NCBI GenBank assembly: GCA_012338575.1
Contig: GCA_012338575.1_3616.1
Source of the DNA: a phage
Strand: one strand, 5' to 3'
DNA: 64,000 nucleotides
Part shown: positions 47,888 through 58,578 of the stretch, one piece after another
Position numbering within the stretch: the first letter of the stretch is position 1
Layout of the letters: every line of letters begins with the position of its first letter
Position numbers and translations under genes: made by a program
Notes under the pieces: model-generated
Databases searched by the model: none
What the model was told of the DNA's origin: nothing
Seen by the model: the letters and a program-made list of their open reading frames with translations, nothing else

Positions 47888-47912
47888 ATAAGTAAAGCCG
47901 GGATCACCCGGC
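47888..47912 (-). terminator. hairpin terminator (leftward)
   Basis: GCCGGG-tgat-CCCGGC followed by TTTACTTATT on minus strand. Confidence 0.5.
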
Positions 47913-47919
47913 TATGTTG

Positions 47920-48633
47920 TCAAATATACTCTGTTACATCCTTGAAGCTCGAAGGCTTCATAATCTTACCTTTGCTGTCAAGGAATATAATAACTTTATT
48001 GCCGTTGTAGAACTCCTCTTTAGCAACGAAACCTTCGTAGCGACCACCAAAACGACGCTCAAGATCTTTAATCTCCAACTCGATGAGTTGTTCAGCAGGC
48101 ATATCTGCACTGGCACCGTGTGAATGCCGTAGATGGTTGATCCGCGCAAACTTACTGTCATTAGATTTGAGAACCTTCCGCATCATCCCACACACATCCC
48201 CGCTAAGCTGGAACAGCAAAGCTGTTGATAACTCCGCTAGTCGGTAAGCAGACGCTTTTTGCTTTGGTGTGTTTTTAGCAGCGATCAGTGTATCATAGAA
48301 CTCCCCAATCTTAAACTTAATATCTCGCGAATTATCAAACAGACTTGTCCACTTTTCGTAGTTATCGTTGACAAGATAAGCGGCATAACTTGTAACAACG
48401 TGCAGATCACAGGCCTCTTTTAGCAGGTGATCTCCACCATCACCTTTCTCCAACTCTTCAAGAACCTCATTAAACTCTTCTTCAATAAAACTGAGCTGGA
48501 GTTCGAATGGTGTGTATGATTTTTTCACTTTAGCTGCTACACGGTTCCAATTTTCCACCCAACTGGCAGACCAAAGGTAGTTTTCTGGCTGAGACAGTTT
48601 TTCCAGGTTGTCGATCAGTTTAGTATTTAGCAT
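47920..48633 (-). CDS. possible MazG-like nucleotide pyrophosphohydrolase
   Basis: FIEEEFNEVLEELEKGD...LKEACDL acidic helix pattern reminiscent of MazG EExxE motifs; weak. Confidence 0.35.
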   Translation of the reverse strand: MLNTKLIDNLEKLSQPENYLWSASWVENWNRVAAKVKKSYTPFELQLSFIEEEFNEVLEELEKGDGGDHLLKEACDLHVVTSYAAYLVNDNYEKWTSLFDNSRDIKFKIGEFYDTLIAAKNTPKQKASAYRLAELSTALLFQLSGDVCGMMRKVLKSNDSKFARINHLRHSHGASADMPAEQLIELEIKDLERRFGGRYEGFVAKEEFYNGNKVIIFLDSKGKIMKPSSFKDVTEYI

Positions 48634-48647
48634 TAAAAGGTCACCTC

Positions 48648-49409
48648 TTACAGTTCCATAAAGTTTTCTACAGTTTCAATAAATGCTTTATCAGAGAAAG
48701 CGTCAACAGCACCGTTAAACCATACAGGGATCCCGCGATCCTCATATTGATAAAGGTCGCTACGTGAAATGCCACTTCCATCTGCACTCTGCGAATCATA
48801 CTTGTTTACAATCAGCAGTTTTGTGCCTTTACAAGTAGCAGGAAACAATTCCCAGTTAAAATTAATAACTGTGTTAGAACAACCTACCAGGATCACCATA
48901 TCATTGCTGGTAAGAGATGTCAACAGGTCATACATGTCTGTATACTTAGGAGCAACCTCACCGAAGAACACTACATTGGGCTTAACCCAGGTATACTTGC
49001 CTGTATCTACCTCCGTGTACCCTATATTTTTAATTACATCATTACCTTCAGCATCTTCATAGGTGATTTCAGGCAAATACCCGTGGACATGTAAAATATC
49101 TTCATGTTTTACACCAGCACGCTCCAGCAAATCATCTACATTGGTGGTCAGGTTGATCACACGACCAGACCAGCGGGAATACCACTCAGCGATCCGGAGA
49201 TGTGCAAGGTTAGGATCAACACTGCCCAGAGCTACACGACGTGCATTGTAAAAGTCATGCACCTTATAGTAGTTCTTGGCGAAGGTGTGGATGTTGCACA
49301 CCTCATCTATGCTGAAATTCTCCCACATTGCAGTACTACCAGATCGGAAAGTGGGAATACCAGATTCAGCGCTCAAACCAGCACCGGAGATAATAATCAG
49401 TCGTCGCAT
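48648..49409 (-). CDS. Sir2-family NAD-dependent deacylase-like protein
   Basis: ISGAGLSAESGIPTFR (GAGxS..GIPxFR), TTNVDDL (cf. TQNxDxL) and HVHG motifs. Confidence 0.7.
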   Translation of the reverse strand: MRRLIIISGAGLSAESGIPTFRSGSTAMWENFSIDEVCNIHTFAKNYYKVHDFYNARRVALGSVDPNLAHLRIAEWYSRWSGRVINLTTNVDDLLERAGVKHEDILHVHGYLPEITYEDAEGNDVIKNIGYTEVDTGKYTWVKPNVVFFGEVAPKYTDMYDLLTSLTSNDMVILVGCSNTVINFNWELFPATCKGTKLLIVNKYDSQSADGSGISRSDLYQYEDRGIPVWFNGAVDAFSDKAFIETVENFMEL

Positions 49410-49417
49410 AAGTGCCC

Positions 49418-49768
49418 TCAGTAGATGTTTTGTTTAATCTCTATTCCAAACTTTTTAAACGAGTCAGCTGCAAGCATGAATTTACGAGCCGCTGATGGAT
49501 TAGAAGTATGTACGAAAATCTTCACGTTGTCAACCACGGGAGGCTTACCGAATACAAATTTTTCCTCCAACATGGATAGGCAATCGTATCCTTCGAATAC
49601 TTCTCCTAGGTCGTTGTCCATATGCCACTCAGAAACGCGTCTGTAGAGCTTTCCCTTATCGTTAATAAAATCCATAAACTCGGAGGAATTCTTCAGCCAA
49701 ACAGCGTCTGGGAGCCCGTAATTTGACGGATCTCTTAAGTCATCTAGCCACACAATCAACTTCTTCAT
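49418..49768 (-). CDS. hypothetical protein (116 aa) between Sir2-like and ligase-like genes
   Basis: ORF; no family recognised. Confidence 0.45.
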   Translation of the reverse strand: MKKLIVWLDDLRDPSNYGLPDAVWLKNSSEFMDFINDKGKLYRRVSEWHMDNDLGEVFEGYDCLSMLEEKFVFGKPPVVDNVKIFVHTSNPSAARKFMLAADSFKKFGIEIKQNIY

Positions 49769-50700
49769 TGCATATAGTTCTCGTTGTGGAAATAGTAATC
49801 AAGTATCTCACGGCGTTCCTGCTCCAGGAGGCAGTTCCACACATCCTCTGTGTAATTGCTACGAATGAAGTTTACCATGCCGTAAAACTCTTCGTCAACA
49901 CGTTTAAAGATATCATCATCCCAAATCTTCCAAGCTTTACCCCTCATTACGGCCTTCCGTGCCAGATAGTATGGAGACTTGATCTTCAGCTGCAGATCAT
50001 AAGGGTAGTAAGGCTTACGAATCATATACCCTTCACCTCTTGTTTCTGCAGCTAATTCTTTTGCATAGCTGAACGGAATTTCACGCACAGTGTGAGGACG
50101 TTTTGCACCAAGGTATTTGGCAATCCCATCTAAAGCTGCTTCTGGTAGCATTATTCCAGAATCATTATATCTGCAACCTATCAAATATGCGCCATGATCT
50201 TCCTGAACAATATGCGGATCTGAAGGGTGACAAATTTCAAACATGAATGTCATGTTTTCATTGCCCATAACCTTCTTGATAAGATCTAAATTACCACATT
50301 GCTCTTGGATGGTTTCCTTTGCAAGGTTACAATATGGAGAATCAAGAGACCCGGTTGTTGAGAACAATAGTTCACCTTTATGAGATGATACCACACCGAG
50401 GAATCCGTTCTTTTTCTCTACCGCAGTAACAAGTTTACTGTCCGGTAGGTTGGTGGAGTTTTCTCCTAAGTTGAATACTTTTGTGAAAGGCCATGCCACA
50501 ACATTCCCCTCATTGCCAACAACAATACCTCGGCACTCCAGTAAACGCGGAGACAAATGCCACAGATTGTTGTAGAATACTTTTCTGGCATATTTATAGA
50601 TCTTTAATCCAAGATCTGGATAATACCGACTGGTTACAAGACCTTTGTCTACTAGGTCATCTGCATTAAAATACTTCATCATACGTTCCTCATTTGTCAT
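49765..50700 (-). CDS. RNA-ligase-like nucleotidyltransferase (Rnl2-like motifs)
   Basis: Motif I EKKNGFLG (KxNG), motif IV GEGYMIRKPYYPYD (cf. recalled T4 Rnl2 EGYVLKPCYP), motif V LKIKSPYY. Confidence 0.5.
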   Translation of the reverse strand: MTNEERMMKYFNADDLVDKGLVTSRYYPDLGLKIYKYARKVFYNNLWHLSPRLLECRGIVVGNEGNVVAWPFTKVFNLGENSTNLPDSKLVTAVEKKNGFLGVVSSHKGELLFSTTGSLDSPYCNLAKETIQEQCGNLDLIKKVMGNENMTFMFEICHPSDPHIVQEDHGAYLIGCRYNDSGIMLPEAALDGIAKYLGAKRPHTVREIPFSYAKELAAETRGEGYMIRKPYYPYDLQLKIKSPYYLARKAVMRGKAWKIWDDDIFKRVDEEFYGMVNFIRSNYTEDVWNCLLEQERREILDYYFHNENYMQ

Positions 50701-50800
50701 TTTGTCAGTCTATCCTGCCACACAAATAACCTAGTGTCAACACTTGAAATTAACAAAACAGTTAGGTATACTATCATTAAAATTAAAACGGAGGATTGCT

Positions 50801-51211
50801 ATGTCTAAAATGCTATATATCGTGCGTGGTCTGCCAGGGTCTGGCAAATCAACACTGGCAAATGCGCTATCTTTAGAAGGTCTGTATCCACATTTTGAGA
50901 ACGACATGTTCTGGTATGACGATGACGGCAATTACAACTGGGATGCAAGTAAAGTAACACTCGCAGCAAAATGGTGCAAAGATAACGTAGAAGATATGAT
51001 GCGTATGGGATACGACCGTATCGTGGTAAGTAATACGTTTACAAAAGAAAAACATGTGCAGGAATATGTTGACATGGCAATCAGTCACGGGTATAGTTAT
51101 ACCGTGATCGTGGTTGAAAACCGCCACGGTAATAAAAGCATTCATGATGTTCCAGACAAGGTTGTGGATCGTATGGAACGCCAGCTTAAAAACTGCATTA
51201 AACTTAAATGA
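50801..51211 (+). CDS. P-loop polynucleotide-kinase-like kinase
   Basis: ATG 50801 after GGAGG; LYIVRGLPGSGKSTLAN resembles recalled T4 Pnk kinase IILTIGCPGSGKSTWA. Confidence 0.5.
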   Translation: MSKMLYIVRGLPGSGKSTLANALSLEGLYPHFENDMFWYDDDGNYNWDASKVTLAAKWCKDNVEDMMRMGYDRIVVSNTFTKEKHVQEYVDMAISHGYSYTVIVVENRHGNKSIHDVPDKVVDRMERQLKNCIKLK

Positions 51212-51218
51212 GGAATGT

Positions 51219-51773
51219 ATGAAATACTTTGTAACAAGCGACACACACTTTCTCCACCAGCGGGTCATGGAGTTTGATTCATGTCAAAAACACAGATCTC
51301 AGTATGATCACAATCTTGACAGTATGAATGCGGGAATCATCGCCGAGTGGAACTCTGTTGTGTCACCTGCAGACACTGTGTTTCACTTGGGAGATATTGC
51401 GTGCACTAATGATAAGAATATCAACAAATTGCTCCCAGATGTTCTAAATATGTTGAACGGACATATTATTCTTGTTCGTGGTAACCATGACACAAGGACG
51501 ACTGTCAGAATTATGAAAGAGTTCGGTCATGATGTTGTAGATTATTACGAGCTTCGCCACAACAAGAATTTGATCTGTATGAGCCATTACCAGTTTGCAA
51601 AGTGGAACAGAAAGCCTCACGGATCAGTCCAACTGTTCGGTCATGCTCACGGAACCACACAGCAGTTGTTTGGCAGGCAGTTTGATGTCGGTTGGGATGT
51701 GTGGGGGAGACTCTTACCATTAGAAGAGGCATACCGTATTGCAATGAGTCTTGCTATTGACAGCGGGGAGTAA
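51219..51773 (+). CDS. calcineurin-like metallophosphoesterase
   Basis: ATG 51219 after GAGGAA; motifs SDTHF, HLGDI, LVRGNHD, GHAHGT. Confidence 0.6.
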   Translation: MKYFVTSDTHFLHQRVMEFDSCQKHRSQYDHNLDSMNAGIIAEWNSVVSPADTVFHLGDIACTNDKNINKLLPDVLNMLNGHIILVRGNHDTRTTVRIMKEFGHDVVDYYELRHNKNLICMSHYQFAKWNRKPHGSVQLFGHAHGTTQQLFGRQFDVGWDVWGRLLPLEEAYRIAMSLAIDSGE

Positions 51774-51820: not shown

Positions 51821-52171
51821 ATGAAAGATGGGGATAAGCTGCTATATCTTAAAGTCCCCCTTGAAATACTGTCTATGTCAAAAGTTTTGAATGACACAAC
51901 TGGGGAGGCTGTTGTTCTTGACTTATATGACAAGATCGTATACTGCTACCTGCACAACTGGTATAAGCTTGGAGGAAATTCACGCTTCACACCAAGCACA
52001 AGGAAAATTGCAGCAGATGTTGGGATAAAGAAAACAAAAGCAGCAGCGTGCGTTAAAACTTTAGAATGTGCAGGAGTGGTTGAAATATCCACACAAGGGA
52101 GAGGTAAAAGATGTACATTTTCCAAAGTTTTGCCACCAGAAGAGGTTATTCGAATGTCAACAACTGGTTAG
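51821..52171 (+). CDS. putative DNA-binding protein (HTH-like)
   Basis: TRKIAADVGIKKTKAAACVKTLECAGVV helix-turn-helix-like segment; adjacent to tandem palindromic repeats. Confidence 0.4.
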   Translation: MKDGDKLLYLKVPLEILSMSKVLNDTTGEAVVLDLYDKIVYCYLHNWYKLGGNSRFTPSTRKIAADVGIKKTKAAACVKTLECAGVVEISTQGRGKRCTFSKVLPPEEVIRMSTTG

Positions 52172-52242
52172 ACCAGTAAAAACTTAAATATCTGTACTAT
52201 AAGGATTCGTATGTTTTATGTTCGCTCTGGAACAGAGGTCAG

Positions 52243-52286
52243 TAACTGTCCGTGATACGGACACTAACTGTCCGTGATACGGACAC
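52243..52286. repeat. perfect tandem duplication of 22-bp unit TAACTGTCCGTGATACGGACAC (each with palindrome GTCCGT-gat-ACGGAC)
   Basis: Two identical adjacent copies; followed by AT-rich GTAC-repeat region 52320-52410. Confidence 0.8.
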
Positions 52287-52429
52287 ATAAAGAATATAAC
52301 TAAAATAACTAAATAATAAAAAATAAAAGATCTAGTACTTATGGTACTAAGTACATATACTTAACTTATGTAGAATATACTAGATCCTAAGTACCATGTT
52401 TTAAAATTATTACTTACTATAGGTAGTGT

Positions 52430-52700
52430 CGGCCCTTCATTGGCACTCGCCTACGAGGGGCGAGATGCCGGGCCTCCTTGGTGCACACAATAACAGAAGT
52501 GCATACATGCAGGTCTGTTAACATGTGTGGGAGCGAAGCGATAGCGCAGGCCAAAGGCCGAGCACTGATGTGGACCACCGACGAAAGCTTGCCAGCTCCG
52601 TAAGGAGTCGGTTGAGAGTCTCCCGCGCGAGCTTGGATGAAGTTTATGTGTGGAAACTGACAAGAAGGCCCCTAAATCGCTCCACAGCTATATGAACTAT
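52430..52700. other. GC-rich hairpin-dense non-coding region (candidate structured RNA)
   Basis: No plausible ORF; long hairpin GGCCC..GGCA-CTCGCC-tacgagg-GGCGAG-a-TGCC-GGGCC and several palindromes in otherwise AT-rich DNA. Confidence 0.35.
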
Positions 52701-52789
52701 ACCAGGTAATGCAATCGCACCAGTTTGATAGAAAAGCTCGTTACAAAGTGATACAGTGAGTTTTTCTATAACTTGAAGAGGAGGCAGCT

Positions 52790-53368
52790 ATGGGTTCACG
52801 CAAAGATGACCGTGAAAAGATTGCAAAACGTTATCAGAATGAAGAACAGATGGAGAAAACTTTCAAGTGGAAGCCTGGTTTCCAGCGTAATCATTCTAAC
52901 GCTCGTGATCGTAAGCATCCGGATAAGTGGCTAACACCGCCAAATGATGGCATGCAGGTTGGTGATGAGAAGGAGATGTCACCTGGAAAAGATGGCAACT
53001 ACATTCGCACTAAGGAAGCTGGTCCAAAGGATGACAGCTATCTTGTAGATAAGGTTCTTAATGGTATTGATGTAGATGTTGACACTGCACGAAACCTTTT
53101 TCTTGGTTGGTATCGTACAGGGTTTTTCGACATCAAGGCTATTCGTCGTGTTTGCGATATTAAAAAGTCTGCCTATGATGATGACTCCCTACATCGCACT
53201 CTGAGACAATACTCAGAGAGATACGGTCATCCAGTTATCACTCTTGACGATATTAACGAAGTGATGTATCATGCAGAGGTTGTTGCAGGTAGATTCGGTG
53301 ATGCATATCTAGATATCCTTTCTGCAAAGGATGAGGTAATGTTAAATAAGATTTACTATGAACGCTGA
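52790..53368 (+). CDS. hypothetical protein (192 aa)
   Basis: Strong SD GAAGAGGAGG. Confidence 0.6.
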   Translation: MGSRKDDREKIAKRYQNEEQMEKTFKWKPGFQRNHSNARDRKHPDKWLTPPNDGMQVGDEKEMSPGKDGNYIRTKEAGPKDDSYLVDKVLNGIDVDVDTARNLFLGWYRTGFFDIKAIRRVCDIKKSAYDDDSLHRTLRQYSERYGHPVITLDDINEVMYHAEVVAGRFGDAYLDILSAKDEVMLNKIYYER

Positions 53369-54668: not shown

Positions 54669-54743
54669 GCCCTGTTAGCTTAGTGGATAAAGCAGCGGCC
54701 TTCTAAGCCGTTGACACTGGTTCGAGTCCAGTACGGGGTGCCA
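54669..54743 (+). tRNA. tRNA-Arg (anticodon TCT)
   Basis: Manually folded cloverleaf: acceptor GCCCTGT/ACGGGGT, D-arm GCTT-AGTGGATA-AAGC, anticodon loop CTTCTAA, T-arm ACTGG-TTCGAGT-CCAGT, CCA encoded. Confidence 0.8.
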
Positions 54744-54873
54744 AGTTCTTTTTAATGTAGCTTACTTTAGCAGAGTAAATCTTCGGCAAGTGGCGGTAAC
54801 CACTTTACCGATACCTCATAGTTAGTGGTGAGAACACTAGCTATTTTAAAAAGAATTTAAATATTAGTATTTA

Positions 54874-54961
54874 GGTGAGTTAATTCCGTAGGGGTAGCGG
54901 GGCAGACTGTAAATCTGTTATCATTGCGATTCGGGTGGTTCGACTCCATCACTCACCACCA
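54874..54961 (+). tRNA. tRNA-Tyr (anticodon GTA), long variable arm
   Basis: Acceptor GGTGAGT/ACTCACC, anticodon loop CTGTAAA, T-loop GGTTCGACTCC, CCA encoded; 85 nt plus CCA. Confidence 0.8.
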
Positions 54962-55075
54962 AATTTATATTTTTAAATGCATAAATCATACAGGTAATGG
55001 CATTGATATTTATCGTCGTTTATACTAGTCACTAACTGCTCGAAAATCAGTGTCATTATCAGTATTGTTTATAAA

Positions 55076-55166
55076 AGAGGGTAGGGAGCAATGGTGCTCA
55101 AGCGGTCTTGAAAACCGTCCCGTTGAGGATGACTCGATGATGGTTCGATTCCATTATCCTCTGCCA
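55076..55166 (+). tRNA. tRNA-Ser (anticodon TGA), long variable arm
   Basis: Acceptor AGAGGGT/ATCCTCT, anticodon loop CTTGAAA, T-arm GATGG-TTCGATT-CCATT, CCA encoded. Confidence 0.75.
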
Positions 55167-55264
55167 TATTGTTGACCTTGTAATTAAGCGAAAGCCGGAA
55201 GCAGAACCGGATTATCAAATGTTACAGTCGTCATCGCCGACTAGCAACATGGTCAACATACTGA

Positions 55265-55361
55265 GCTAGGTAAGCCCTTTGGCAAGGGCGAGGATTTTTA
55301 ATCCTGAAAATAGACGAGGTAGTCGTTGAATACATAGGTGGTTCGATTCCATCACCTAGCA
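55265..55361 (+). other. aberrant tRNA-like element (canonical acceptor, D- and T-arms; anticodon region replaced/expanded)
   Basis: Acceptor GCTAGGT/ACCTAGC, D-arm GCCC-TTTGGCAA-GGGC, T-arm GGTGG-TTCGATT-CCATC, but middle is AGGATT-TTT-AATCCT hairpin plus about 30 extra nt; no encoded CCA. Confidence 0.4.
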
Positions 55362-55368
55362 CCTTTTT

Positions 55369-55444
55369 GCTGATGTAGCACAATTGGTAGTGCAATTGAT
55401 TTGTAATCAATAGGTTGCAGGTTCAAGTCCTGCCATCAGCACCA
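55369..55444 (+). tRNA. tRNA-Thr (anticodon TGT)
   Basis: Acceptor GCTGATG/CATCAGC, D-arm GCAC-AATTGGTA-GTGC, anticodon stem ATTGA/TCAAT loop TTTGTAA, T-arm GCAGG-TTCAAGT-CCTGC, CCA. Confidence 0.85.
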
Positions 55445-55445
55445 T

Positions 55446-55520
55446 GGCCCTGTAGCTGGAAGGTTCAAGCAAGCGACTCATAATCGCCAGACGGTGGTTC
55501 AATTCCACCCAGGGCCACCA
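55446..55520 (+). tRNA. tRNA-Met (anticodon CAT; elongator or Ile2-type)
   Basis: Acceptor GGCCCTG/CAGGGCC, anticodon loop CTCATAA, T-arm GGTGG-TTCAATT-CCACC, CCA; paired 1:72 argues against initiator. Confidence 0.75.
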
Positions 55521-55531
55521 AATAGTAAATA

Positions 55532-55608
55532 CTCCGCGTAGCTCAGCTTGGTAGAGCGCCTGATTTGGGATCAGGAGGTCGAGTGTTCGAATCACTCCGT
55601 GGAGACCA
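55532..55608 (+). tRNA. tRNA-Pro (anticodon TGG)
   Basis: Acceptor CTCCGCG/CGTGGAG, D-arm GCTC-AGCTTGGTA-GAGC, anticodon stem CCTGA/TCAGG loop TTTGGGA, T-arm GAGTG-TTCGAAT-CACTC, CCA. Confidence 0.85.
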
Positions 55609-56428: not shown

Positions 56429-56712
56429 GAGTTGCTACACTGTTTATTGCGTGCTTGTTATTATGTGGGTGTGCAACCAGTGTTGAGAAAGAATACAAGA
56501 TTGACCCTCCAGATGTAGGAAGGTTGATTGTTAAACCCCCGGAAGGTGCCATGAAACCACCTGCTAAAGCTATACCTTTAAAGAAAGGTGCGCCAGATGC
56601 GGTGAATTCTGGCATTATGAGGGATAATAATCTGTCTTGTAGCAATGATAGAGCTAAATTGATCATTTTGCAAGACTATATTAGAACACTGTTTCCAAAG
56701 GAGAGAGGTTAA
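56425..56712 (+). CDS. o-spanin (Rz1-like outer-membrane lipoprotein)
   Basis: Signal peptide MRVATLFIACLLLCGC with lipobox Cys; Pro-rich mature part; ATGA overlap with i-spanin. Confidence 0.55.
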   Translation: MRVATLFIACLLLCGCATSVEKEYKIDPPDVGRLIVKPPEGAMKPPAKAIPLKKGAPDAVNSGIMRDNNLSCSNDRAKLIILQDYIRTLFPKERG

Positions 56713-57137
56713 TGTCTAAGATTTACGGACCGTGTTCTGAAAAGCAGAAGATGATCCTCGAAAACGATGCAGATATTTTGGTAATCGGCGGTGCCGCAGG
56801 GTCTGGCAAGTCGTTCCTTTTGCAGTTGATGCCGCTTAAAATTATTGATGACCCCCACAGCTCTGTGGTTATGTTCCGAAGAACAACTCCACAGTTGGAG
56901 GGTGAGGGTGGACTATGGCCTAAAGCAGTAGCTATTTATAGTGATCTGCCTGAAAACATTAAGCCAAAGTTCAGAGAGAAGGATCATAAGTTCATTTTTC
57001 CACGGTTTGATCCTAACACTGGTAAGTGGGATAGAAGCAAAAAGGGAGCTGTTGTAAAATACTGCCACATGGAGTATGTACAAGATAAGCTTAACCATCA
57101 AGGGCTTGAGTACACCATGGTTTGCTTCGATGAGGGT
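56712..57137 (+). CDS. terminase large subunit, exon 1 (ATPase Walker A/B)
   Basis: Walker A GGAAGSGKS, Walker B MVCFDEG; reading frame hits stop at 57138-57140 inside intron. Confidence 0.75.
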
Positions 57138-57456
57138 TAATTTGTAGCTCTCGTAAAACCTCCCTAATTGCGGGGAAATCTTTATTATTGACACCACCAA
57201 CCTGTTATGGTAACATGATAGAGGCTTCGAAGAGAGATCGAAGGTATGGTAACAGTGTGTTAATTTAGATAATCCGCAGCGAAGCATCCGAGGGGATGAA
57301 CGTTCAACGACTAGTCGAAAGACGTAGAATCAAGCGATTCGAAACGGGAGGGTAAGCGGTTGTTGTCGCTTATAAGATATAGTCTGGTCTGCATGGAGAC
57401 ATGCAGCTGCCTGAAAATGGCGGGGCAAGACTAGCGACCTTGCCCGAACATAAACG
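57138..57456 (+). mobile_element. group I intron (ORF-less, td-like) interrupting terminase large subunit gene
   Basis: 319 nt without ORF; begins TAATTTG after exon T, ends ...GAACATAAACG; contains AGTCTGGTCTGCATGGAGACATGCAGCTG, AACGACTA, CGAAACG strings recalled from T4 td intron; splicing 57137/57457 is in frame. Confidence 0.75.
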
Positions 57457-58578
57457 ACACAATTCGAATGGGAGCAGATAGACTACCTGATGTCTCGTCT
57501 GCGATCTCAGTCAAAGTATCCATCAAGGATGGTTATCAGCTGTAACCCCGATTCAGAACACATGCTTGCCAAACTGGTTAGATGGTGGTTGGACGATGAA
57601 GGGTATCCAGATCCGGAGAAATGCGGTAAGAAAAGATATTTTATCCGACGCGACGGTGAATTTATTTGGGGAGACTCTAAGGAAGAGTTGATAGAGAAAT
57701 ACACCACGGTTAACGGACTGGGTGTAGAGATCAAGCCAAGACCGTTGTCATTCTCGTTCATAGGCGCAACAATATTCGATAATCCTGTCTGTTTGAGAGA
57801 CAACCCAGAATACCTTGCTTTCCTTGAAGGCCTGCCAGAACTTGAAAAAGCCCAGCTTCTTCATGGCAACTGGTTTGCAAAGCCTGAGGGTGCAAACTAT
57901 TTTCAAAGATCTTTCCTTCGTGATGCCGATAGAGTACCCCTTGGATCAGTATCTTGCAGGGCATGGGATAAGGCAGGAACCGAGAGAACTTCCGGTAATA
58001 AATTTCCTGACTTTACCGCCAGTGTTAAGGTAAGTAAAGATAGCGACGGCTTTTATTACCTGTCCGGTGATTATTGTCCTGAGAACGTGGATGACGGGAG
58101 GTATTCCACAGGTCTGGAAGGTAAGTTCTGTAAAAAGGCTGGTGAACGAGATGTGATCATCAGGAAACAGGCGCAGTTTGATGGTGATGATTGTATAATC
58201 GTATTCTCTGTGGACCCCGGTCAGGCAGGTAAGAGTGAGTTCTTAACATCCTCCAGATCCTTGCTTGCCGAAGGGTTTAGGGTTGAAGAAGACCCAATGC
58301 CTTCCAACAAATCTAAACTGACAAGGTTCTCACCTTTTGCCAATCTTGCCCAACAAGGAATGGTTAGGATTGTAAAATCCAGTTTCCATCCTGATACTCT
58401 GGAAGCATTTCTGACTGAACTTGAAAAATTCAACGGGGAAAGATCAACATTTAACAGGAAAGACGACTGGGCCGACTGTGTAGCTTCTGCGATTAATTTC
58501 CTGGAGAAAGAGGAGGTAGCACTTCCTTGTGTGATTCCATCAATCTCATCACCTTCTATGTTCAAGCGTTTTATCTAA
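57457..58578 (+). CDS. terminase large subunit, exon 2 (nuclease domain)
   Basis: Frame open from 57457 (TQFEWEQIDYLMSRL...); 373 aa C-terminal part; followed by terminator. Confidence 0.7.
   Translation, partial: TQFEWEQIDYLMSRLRSQSKYPSRMVISCNPDSEHMLAKLVRWWLDDEGYPDPEKCGKKRYFIRRDGEFIWGDSKEELIEKYTTVNGLGVEIKPRPLSFSFIGATIFDNPVCLRDNPEYLAFLEGLPELEKAQLLHGNWFAKPEGANYFQRSFLRDADRVPLGSVSCRAWDKAGTERTSGNKFPDFTASVKVSKDSDGFYYLSGDYCPENVDDGRYSTGLEGKFCKKAGERDVIIRKQAQFDGDDCIIVFSVDPGQAGKSEFLTSSRSLLAEGFRVEEDPMPSNKSKLTRFSPFANLAQQGMVRIVKSSFHPDTLEAFLTELEKFNGERSTFNRKDDWADCVASAINFLEKEEVALPCVIPSISSPSMFKRFI

Follow-up and report, generated by a model that had tools for sequence, protein, structure and literature searches.

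Iyer, Burroughs, Anantharaman, and Aravind described three types of sirtuin-centered RNA-repair neighborhoods in phages in 2022 (Viruses 14:1977, PMC9503650). Type 2, for which Escherichia phage V5 and Proteus phage Mydo are the prototypes, unites a sirtuin, a T4-like RNA ligase, cREC, a nucleotide kinase, a pyrophosphatase of the MazG superfamily, and in some cases a phosphoesterase of the calcineurin-like type (PMC9503650). The same work proposed that the sirtuin acts in KptA/Tpt1 fashion, removing in an NAD+-dependent manner 2'-phosphates derived from 2',3'-cyclic phosphate ends, and that cREC, phosphoesterase, and pyrophosphatase open the cyclic phosphate or process the by-product ADP-ribose>P. 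Jumbo-phage versions carry a Nudix protein where MazG stands in the locus studied here (PMC9503650). The cREC family had been defined by Iyer et al. in 2021, with predicted hydrolysis of 2',3'-cyclic phosphates or of ADP-ribose cyclic phosphate (PMC7824862). Here, we analyze positions 48648-49768 of a 64,000-nucleotide stretch of phage DNA (contig GCA_012338575.1_3616.1; hereafter, the window). This locus encodes a Sir2-like protein and a 116-amino-acid protein, which an original prediction made from the sequence alone had read as a Sir2 and its unknown partner.

The locus compares closely with the type 2 neighborhood: all six components are present within 47920-51773, and we found no substantive difference. 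The source phage is a Vequintavirus, an rV5-like Escherichia coli myophage of the same genus as V5, and its cREC protein is 87% identical to V5 cREC. Over the 3.9 kb around the locus, identity reaches 99.5% with phiWec189 and 96.5% with phage Murica; at least 80% of this region is covered in 118 phage records. The type 2 gene set is also found in Murica, Ro1, and relatives in IMG/VR, and dozens of GenBank records already label the sirtuin gene "Sir2-like". Neighborhood, cREC family, and mechanistic hypothesis are all in print, and the system is a known one. What we add is the clade-wide loss of the zinc site and the invariance of the Y-x-x-R motif in the sirtuin, the distinction between an accessory, separable Sir2 and cREC and a widespread kinase-ligase-phosphoesterase core, and the finding of cREC genes embedded in tRNA arrays.

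Our preferred reading, to which we assign a probability of roughly 0.38, is that Sir2 and cREC serve as accessory, Tpt1-like enzymes of a phage module repairing breaks in RNA, most likely tRNA, and do not form a stand-alone Sir2 system. It draws on the coupling of the genes in one operon, their linkage across Vequintavirinae genera, the pairing of Sir2 with a HAD_SAK_2 phosphatase in T5-like phages, and the links of cREC to ligase and tRNA genes. The original prediction had pointed to a real sirtuin with intact catalytic residues and had missed the six-gene repair module around it, for which a function had been proposed in print.

The sirtuin and its active site

The Sir2 protein matches the Pfam family SIR2 (PF02146) over profile positions 1-178 of 180 (E=6.9e-28; 98.2 bits against a cut-off of 24) and phrog_2162, "Sir2 (NAD-dependent deacetylase)" (E=1.5e-108). 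The sirtuin motifs named in the original prediction, ISGAGLSAESGIPTFR, TTNVDDL, and HVHG, are all present in the translation. By sequence, E. coli CobB (1s5p; E=3e-21) is the best match among solved structures, and SIRT5 and Sir2Af1 are also among the closest. Structure prediction and fold search, named in the original prediction as checks for both proteins, led to the same relatives: the AlphaFold2 model, with a predicted local distance difference test (pLDDT) value of 89.6, had CobB, Sir2Af1, and SIRT5 as top Foldseek matches (E ~1e-18, template modeling score ~0.75).

In a HMMER alignment with CobB, the cofactor loop GAGLSAESGIPTFR, the VVFFGE and GxS motifs, and N202 are all in place. G9AG11, S13, S16, G17, F21, and R22 of the NAD+-binding loop align residue for residue with CobB 1s5p, N90 and D92 of TTNVDD align with CobB TQNID, and the catalytic H109 of HVHG aligns with CobB HMHG. 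Across 40 homologs that are 50-93% identical to the query, G9AG11, S16, G17, F21, R22, Y54, R57, N90, D92, H109, F148F149, E151, G176, S178, and N202 are invariant, and S13 and G150 are at least 90% conserved. The catalytic His and Asn, on whose presence the original prediction had placed weight, are therefore both there (H109, N90) and unvarying. With the NAD+ pocket and the catalytic His, Asn, and Asp unvaried throughout, consumption of NAD+ by the enzyme is to be expected.

An intact NAD+-cleaving site is also what one would expect of an ADP-ribosyltransferase or NADase for host takeover or counter-defense, which might modify host proteins or nucleic acid ends or reshape the pools of NAD+ or ADP-ribose signals while cREC and MazG clear the products. 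This explanation, which we regard as improbable, would account for the neighbors predicted to process ADP-ribose derivatives (cREC, and MazG in the place of the jumbo-phage Nudix; PMC9503650) and for the nicotinamide phosphoribosyltransferase (NAMPT) and phosphoribosyl pyrophosphate (PRPP) synthetase genes that neighbor the repair cluster of Mydovirus, Henunavirus, and phi92. However, the protein shows no similarity to defense-type NADase SIR2 proteins and has no Macro partner, no NAD+ salvage genes (NAMPT or PRPP synthetase homologs) were found in the 64-kb window, and depletion of NAD+ would harm the phage's own replication. Canonical class III sirtuins are, moreover, poor NADases without an acyl substrate. 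A likeness to the SIR2 effectors of host defense systems, raised in the original prediction, did not hold up. The protein is CobB/SIRT5-like in sequence and fold, SIR2_2 (PF13289) scored 13.2 bits against a threshold of 24.5, and PADLOC returned no match; a defense-type SIR2/NADase effector was rejected.

The zinc site is missing. No Cys is found in the query where CobB has the zinc cysteines of its VRC...KCHCC motif, and each of the 40 clade members has at most one Cys between its HG and FGE motifs, so that the Cys4 zinc module is lost clade-wide; in the AlphaFold2 model a short beta-hairpin stands in its place. In canonical sirtuins this module walls the peptide cleft on one side. Y54 and R57, the class III Y-x-x-R motif, are kept: the sequence FYNARR is the same as in CobB and corresponds to FYHYRR in SIRT5, and in these two enzymes the motif binds the succinyl or malonyl carboxylate. 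All seven NCBIfam CobB models scored below their cut-offs, the best reaching 122.6 bits against 243 (NF001753), and the best NCBIfam matches, likewise below cut-off, are protein deacylase models. On sequence grounds, we classify the protein as a bona fide sirtuin of the CobB/SIRT5 type that is neither a canonical zinc-bearing enzyme nor a CobB equivalog.

These features bear on an alternative that we consider somewhat unlikely, namely that the protein is an ordinary class III NAD+-dependent lysine deacylase (desuccinylase, demalonylase, or deacetylase) keeping phage or host proteins active in infection, with cREC acting separately on RNA ends together with the ligase. Its targets might be the catalytic lysines of the neighboring RNA and DNA ligases, or proteins of translation or RNA metabolism. 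The nearest relatives in sequence and structure (CobB, Sir2Af1, and SIRT5), the complete catalytic set with an invariant Y-x-x-R, and the deacylase models heading the NCBIfam matches all argue for such an enzyme. So does the position of the gene, which in Vequintavirinae always adjoins a gene for a lysine-adenylylating ligase (here in the RNA ligase operon; in Mydovirus directly upstream of the DNA ligase), as well as its lack of linkage to the repair genes of phi92-like phages and many jumbo phages, which would be expected of a general-purpose enzyme. Yet the NCBIfam CobB models all remain far from their cut-offs, the lost zinc module is part of the peptide-binding cleft, and E. coli already has CobB. 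A generic deacylase would also not explain why linkage to RNA end-processing enzymes recurs independently in two phage families that are unrelated.

The clade was found in 976 phage records, including T5. Among 185,579 bacterial and archaeal species, each represented by one genome, the best matches were ordinary sirtuins of at most 39% identity, mostly with four Cys and with no repair neighbors. As judged from these comparisons, the clade appears to be distinct and essentially phage-specific. The only cellular match resembling it was a full-length zinc-less copy of 43% identity on the chromosome of a Marinobacterium sp. metagenome-assembled genome (L165:7899-8729). An ordinary Cys-bearing sirtuin is encoded 5 kb from this copy, which is probably prophage-derived.

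The cREC protein and the organization of the repair genes

The original prediction had seen no recognizable family in the 116-amino-acid protein and had placed it downstream of Sir2. Both statements need correction: the protein matches Pfam PF20274, cREC_REC ("Cyclic-phosphate processing Receiver domain"; E=1.5e-14, 54.9 bits against a cut-off of 27), and phrog_1479 (E=5e-35), and its gene lies upstream in the direction of transcription. Every full-length homolog detected in a search of 5.8 billion proteins carries PF20274. The fold search showed a receiver fold, and phmmer against PDB sequences gave nothing meaningful for this protein. Counterparts of the receiver active-site residues follow strand 1 (D9 and D10, each conserved to at least 90%), strand 3, at whose end D51 and D53 are invariant, strand 4 (T88, conserved to at least 90%, and the invariant S89), and strand 5, after which position 112 is basic. 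R12, P14, H87, N90, P91, and K96 are invariant residues specific to the family. With its receiver-like fold and conserved aspartates, and without a histidine-kinase partner or output domain, the protein belongs to cREC_REC rather than to the two-component response regulators.

Two minus-strand open reading frames, of 116 and 253 codons' worth of protein, fill 48648-49768 exactly. They are the middle genes of a co-directional run of four (ligase, cREC, Sir2, and MazG) with a single terminator, and the kinase and phosphoesterase genes are divergent from this run (Table 1). The Rnl1-type ligase, P-loop kinase, and metallophosphoesterase adjacent to the pair bear out the placement next to RNA repair genes. 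The ligase stop and the cREC ATG overlap as ATGA (49768-49765). The Sir2 ATG follows 8 nucleotides after the cREC stop, which is overlapped by a GAGG Shine-Dalgarno sequence, and the MazG-like gene begins 14 nucleotides past the Sir2 stop. The tightest coupling of cREC is translational and to the RNA ligase. Both genes are under strong purifying selection, with ratios of nonsynonymous to synonymous substitution rates of 0.0-0.10 for Sir2 (0.10 in the comparison with a relative of 90% identity) and, against Murica, of 0.05 for the 116-amino-acid gene.

The association of cREC with RNA genes extends beyond this operon. In most of 60 sampled phage records, cREC overlaps or abuts an RNA-ligase annotation. 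In two distant phages, cREC genes lie within tRNA arrays: the Yersinia jumbo phage fHe-Yen9-04, which has two tandem cREC paralogs (L084:7980-8723), and the Proteus phage VTCCBPA139, a Novosibvirus (L086:7992-8345). Neither a ligase nor a Sir2 was found within 8 kb of these genes. The presence of cREC in tRNA arrays without a nearby Sir2 suggests that cREC acts on tRNA independently of Sir2. In its genomic distribution, cREC tracks RNA genes rather than Sir2.

Table 1. Repair genes and associated features of the window, with the matches on which their assignment rests
Feature	Positions	Strand	Basis and remarks
Intrinsic-terminator-like hairpin closing the ligase-cREC-Sir2-MazG operon	47896..47913	-	7-pair stem (6 G-C), then T-rich tail
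MazG-like nucleotide pyrophosphohydrolase, 237 aa (amino acids)	47920..48633	-	Last operon gene; phrog_671 "nucleotide pyrophosphohydrolase" E=4.6e-21
Zinc-less class-III-like sirtuin, 253 aa	48648..49409	-	Pfam SIR2, phrog_2162, CobB match, AlphaFold2/Foldseek
cREC protein, 116 aa; receiver-fold predicted cyclic-phosphate/phosphoester-processing enzyme	49418..49768	-	PF20274, phrog_1479
Rnl1-type ATP-dependent RNA ligase, 311 aa	49765..50700	-	First operon gene; Pfam RNA_lig_T4_1 E=9e-15, 55.5 bits against cut-off 28.3; phrog_562 E=4e-66
Divergent intergenic region between ligase operon and kinase-phosphoesterase pair	50701..50800	.	Gene layout
P-loop polynucleotide-kinase-like protein, 136 aa	50801..51211	+	Divergent; Pfam AAA_33 E=1.7e-10; phrog_2071 and phrog_505 "polynucleotide kinase"
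Calcineurin-like metallophosphoesterase, 184 aa; presumed 2',3'-cyclic/3'-phosphate end-healing enzyme	51219..51773	+	Pfam Metallophos_2 and Metallophos; phrog_547 "phosphoesterase" E=8e-52
Phage tRNA array	54669..55608	+	6 tRNAs by ARAGORN, 6 tRNA matches in Rfam; likely substrates

In Pfam, the MazG-like protein had only a weak PRA-PH match (E=0.097). Its counterpart in phage Murica is annotated as an NTP pyrophosphohydrolase, and a MazG-like gene accompanies the repair cluster in Mydovirus, Henunavirus, and phi92. PDB sequence searches with the ligase and with the MazG-like protein found nothing. A terminator is annotated in Murica at the corresponding site at the end of the operon. The start of the kinase gene was set to the ATG at 50801, following the Murica annotation and the translation; the mechanically called reading frame begins at TTG 50744. 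Promoter-like hexamers, which are consensus matches only, occur on the plus strand at 50744-50811. The tRNA array begins about 2.9 kb beyond the phosphoesterase gene.

Repair gene neighborhoods and the proposed tRNA repair branch

Profiles of the window proteins were used to scan 76 IMG/VR loci with relatives of the sirtuin. In about 12 Vequintavirinae-type loci, phosphoesterase, ligase, kinase, Sir2, DNA ligase, MazG, and in part cREC are linked in rearranged order at 45-60% protein identity, and the linkage of the repair genes is likewise kept in the annotated genomes Ro1 and Hena1. In about 35 T5-like loci, where the Sir2 ortholog is 56% identical, the genes after it encode a HAD_SAK_2 phosphatase ("Swiss Army Knife RNA repair"; Pfam E=4e-20) and a pair of DUF7415 proteins. 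The survey loci confirm types 2 and 3 of the published neighborhoods. In the sampled loci, among which Serratia phage BF was not included, we did not reproduce the jumbo-phage context of type 1 (2H/Nudix/cREC/PIN). The two DUF7415 proteins are paralogs that always come after Sir2 and HAD_SAK_2 in T5-like phages (T5, L002:8661-9482), and they are uncharacterized candidate members of the module. NAD+ salvage genes, encoding NAMPT and PRPP synthetase, adjoin the repair cluster in Mydovirus Ro1 (L003:1-1209), Henunavirus Hena1 (L005:1-2357), and phi92 (L085:3258-5956).

A second survey, covering 78 IMG/VR loci around relatives of the Rnl1 ligase (L087-L164), gave Sir2 in 10, cREC in 9, and MazG in 12. 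More than 50 of the 78 contain kinase, ligase, and phosphoesterase, with or without an ATP-dependent DNA ligase, and have neither Sir2 nor cREC within 10 kb; MazG is also absent from more than 50. The compact kinase-Rnl1-metallophosphoesterase triad is widespread in uncultivated viral contigs. This healing-and-sealing triad is the core of the module, and Sir2, cREC, and MazG are accessories of the Vequintavirinae and Stephanstirmvirinae lineages. An obligate pairing of Sir2 with cREC was rejected, since each is found without the other nearby.

Our own results establish what the genes are, their folds and catalytic residues, the layout of the operon, and the conservation of its surroundings. 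Following Iyer et al. 2022 (PMC9503650), we infer RNA as the substrate of the sirtuin and every reaction step of the preferred reading. Host anticodon nucleases or similar ribotoxins would leave 2',3'-cyclic-phosphate and 5'-OH ends on tRNA or other RNA. The core would then work like T4 Pnkp and Rnl1, with the kinase phosphorylating the 5' end, the metallophosphoesterase healing the 3' end, and the Rnl1-type ligase sealing the break. cREC and Sir2 might add an NAD+-dependent branch resembling the fungal and plant tRNA-splicing route, in which a cyclic phosphodiesterase would generate a 3'-OH/2'-PO4 end, the ligase would seal it, and the 2'-phosphate would be removed. This last step would fall to the sirtuin, which may take the 2'-phosphate off the RNA using NAD+ in the manner of Tpt1/KptA. 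A phosphate oxygen would attack C1'' of NAD+, with nicotinamide leaving, and the 2''-OH of the ADP-ribose, activated via H109, would then attack the phosphorus. The MazG-like pyrophosphatase would degrade the ADP-ribose product. In the sirtuin mechanism, a substrate oxygen attacks NAD+ C1'' with loss of nicotinamide, and the ADP-ribose 2''-OH subsequently attacks the electrophilic center of the substrate. The sirtuin scaffold might thus suit Tpt1 chemistry, because both share the attack on C1'' with loss of nicotinamide followed by attack of the 2''-OH. An anionic substrate other than a peptide would be compatible with the loss of the zinc module, the retained Y/R pair that binds anions, and the presence of MazG as a partner, none of which is proof of it.

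Several observations weigh against this role of the sirtuin. The Y-x-x-R motif fits an ordinary protein desuccinylase equally well, and the metallophosphoesterase alone could remove 2'- or 3'-phosphates, which would make a Tpt1-like step redundant. The Sir2 clade is acidic, with a median isoelectric point of 5.1 and a net charge of -12, a property that does not point to a surface for RNA binding, although the ligase shares it. The frequency of the core triad without Sir2 or cREC points in the same direction, as does the separability of the two accessories in Henunavirus and T5, where Sir2 is present and cREC absent. In phi92 and Phapecoctavirus, cREC, phosphoesterase, ligase, kinase, DNA ligase, and MazG lie together and Sir2 is tens of kilobases away; in Phapecoctavirus DIJ07P1, Sir2 and cREC are 33 kb apart. 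The Sir2 neighbors in phi92-like phages and Phapecoctavirus had no repair-related Pfam or PHROG match, and no repair domain was found in 20 proteins flanking 16 further dereplicated Sir2 loci, among them loci of Vibrio and other jumbo phages. Altogether, 30 proteins flanking Sir2 in phi92-like, Phapecoctavirus, and jumbo-phage loci were scanned with Pfam or PHROGs. None was repair-related; the matches comprised DUF7275/DUF7277, a PHROG DNA-methyltransferase family, a deoxyribosyltransferase-like protein, a resolvase, endonuclease VII, DUF4124, and a weak CcmH match. Finally, our literature search found no experimental work on phage sirtuins or cREC, and a 2026 paper on NARP3 concerns host Sir2-HerA only, not phage sirtuins.

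The location of the gene in a tRNA-repair operon near a tRNA array, together with fully conserved deacylase chemistry, would also be consistent with a sirtuin that repairs acylated rather than broken tRNA, using normal amide chemistry to remove acyl groups placed on aminoacyl-tRNA by GNAT toxins of the TacT/AtaT class. The link to GNAT toxins is our own inference from context, and we consider this speculative explanation very unlikely: the acidic surface speaks against RNA binding, and we know of no sirtuin acting on alpha-amino acyl groups or tRNA-linked substrates.

It is tempting to speculate that the phage protein would be the first sirtuin with a nucleic acid as its physiological substrate, a zinc-less, class III-derived enzyme stripping 2'-phosphates from repaired tRNA as a convergent replacement of Tpt1/KptA, with cREC as a new receiver-fold cyclic phosphodiesterase. 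This idea was predicted in 2022, and in this full form it strikes us as rather doubtful; a variant, in which the sirtuin removes acyl groups from toxin-modified aminoacyl-tRNA, is less likely. If the published prediction is true, sirtuin chemistry would extend from protein deacylation to RNA dephosphorylation, and phages would possess a full tRNA healing route, eukaryote-like and dependent on NAD+, with which to withstand the anticodon nucleases of their hosts. Numerous and easy to express, the proteins of this family are a good biochemical target.

Further features were noted elsewhere in the window. In the tRNA array, ARAGORN called tRNAs for Arg, Ser, Thr, Met, and Pro and an odd tRNA-like gene of 97-99 nucleotides, and Rfam added a tRNA at 54874-54958. 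The odd gene (55265-55363) has a 4-base anticodon according to ARAGORN and lies just above the Rfam tRNA threshold; its Murica equivalent is annotated as "tRNA-OTHER Asp|Gly". Rfam RF00028 (83.6 bits, cut-off 50) identified a group I intron at 57128-57456 on the plus strand. It sits within an insertion of 320 bp by which the gene for the terminase large subunit is divided into open reading frames 56712-57140 and 57490-58578; the gene is uninterrupted in Murica, with flanks of 97-98% identity. Between a gene for a helix-turn-helix "replication initiation protein" (51821-52171) and the gene at 52790-53368, about 620 bp (52172-52789) contain no long open reading frame; this gap is also unannotated in Murica and has no Rfam match. 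About 20 unannotated GenBank records (MG0656xx) labeled "Campylobacter phage" with the host C. jejuni are 93-100% identical to E. coli rV5-like phages in the region of the locus. Probably, these host labels are wrong or the samples were contaminated.

Comparison with known repair and NAD+-dependent systems

The core of the module, consisting of kinase, phosphoesterase, and Rnl1-type ligase, is shared with T4 Pnkp and Rnl1 and with the Clostridium thermocellum Pnkp/Hen1-type systems, and presumably counters tRNA anticodon nucleases. It differs from them in having its kinase and phosphatase on two proteins, in a phosphatase that is calcineurin-like and not of the HAD type, and in the additional Sir2, cREC, and MazG. 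cREC in turn differs from the REC domains of two-component regulators such as CheY in its genomic company, which consists of RNA ligases and tRNA genes and not of signaling genes.

With CobB and SIRT5, the phage Sir2 shares the fold, the GAGxSxxSGIxxFR loop, the N and D of TQNID, the catalytic His of HG, and the FGE, GxS, and Y-x-x-R motifs. It differs in its low identity of about 27%, with scores below the NCBIfam CobB cut-offs, in the absence of the zinc cysteines throughout the clade, in a C-terminal extension of about 50 residues, and in a context of RNA end-processing, not metabolism. The defense SIR2 NADases (ThsA, DSR1/2, SIR2-HerA, and SPARSA) have only the broad superfamily NAD+-binding Rossmann core in common with the phage Sir2, which has no sensor or partner domains, is phage-encoded, and stands in a repair operon.

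Tpt1/KptA has an ART-superfamily (ADP-ribosyltransferase) fold that is unrelated to the phage Sir2 in structure and sequence, and only sirtuin families were matched by the latter. The likeness lies in the proposed reaction, in which the 2'-phosphate left on sealed RNA is removed with NAD+, as happens in the tRNA splicing of fungi and plants; for the sirtuin, this reaction is predicted only. The two-step chemistry of Tpt1 is documented in PMC11417386. The logic of the pathway is likewise similar, with a cyclic phosphodiesterase, a kinase, and a ligase preceding the NAD+ enzyme, whereas the phage module, unlike the Tpt1 route, has a metallophosphoesterase that could bypass the need for the 2'-phosphate step. 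The phage Sir2, with no homology to PTS_2-RNA or the ART fold, is not a member of the Tpt1 family and may at most work like one.

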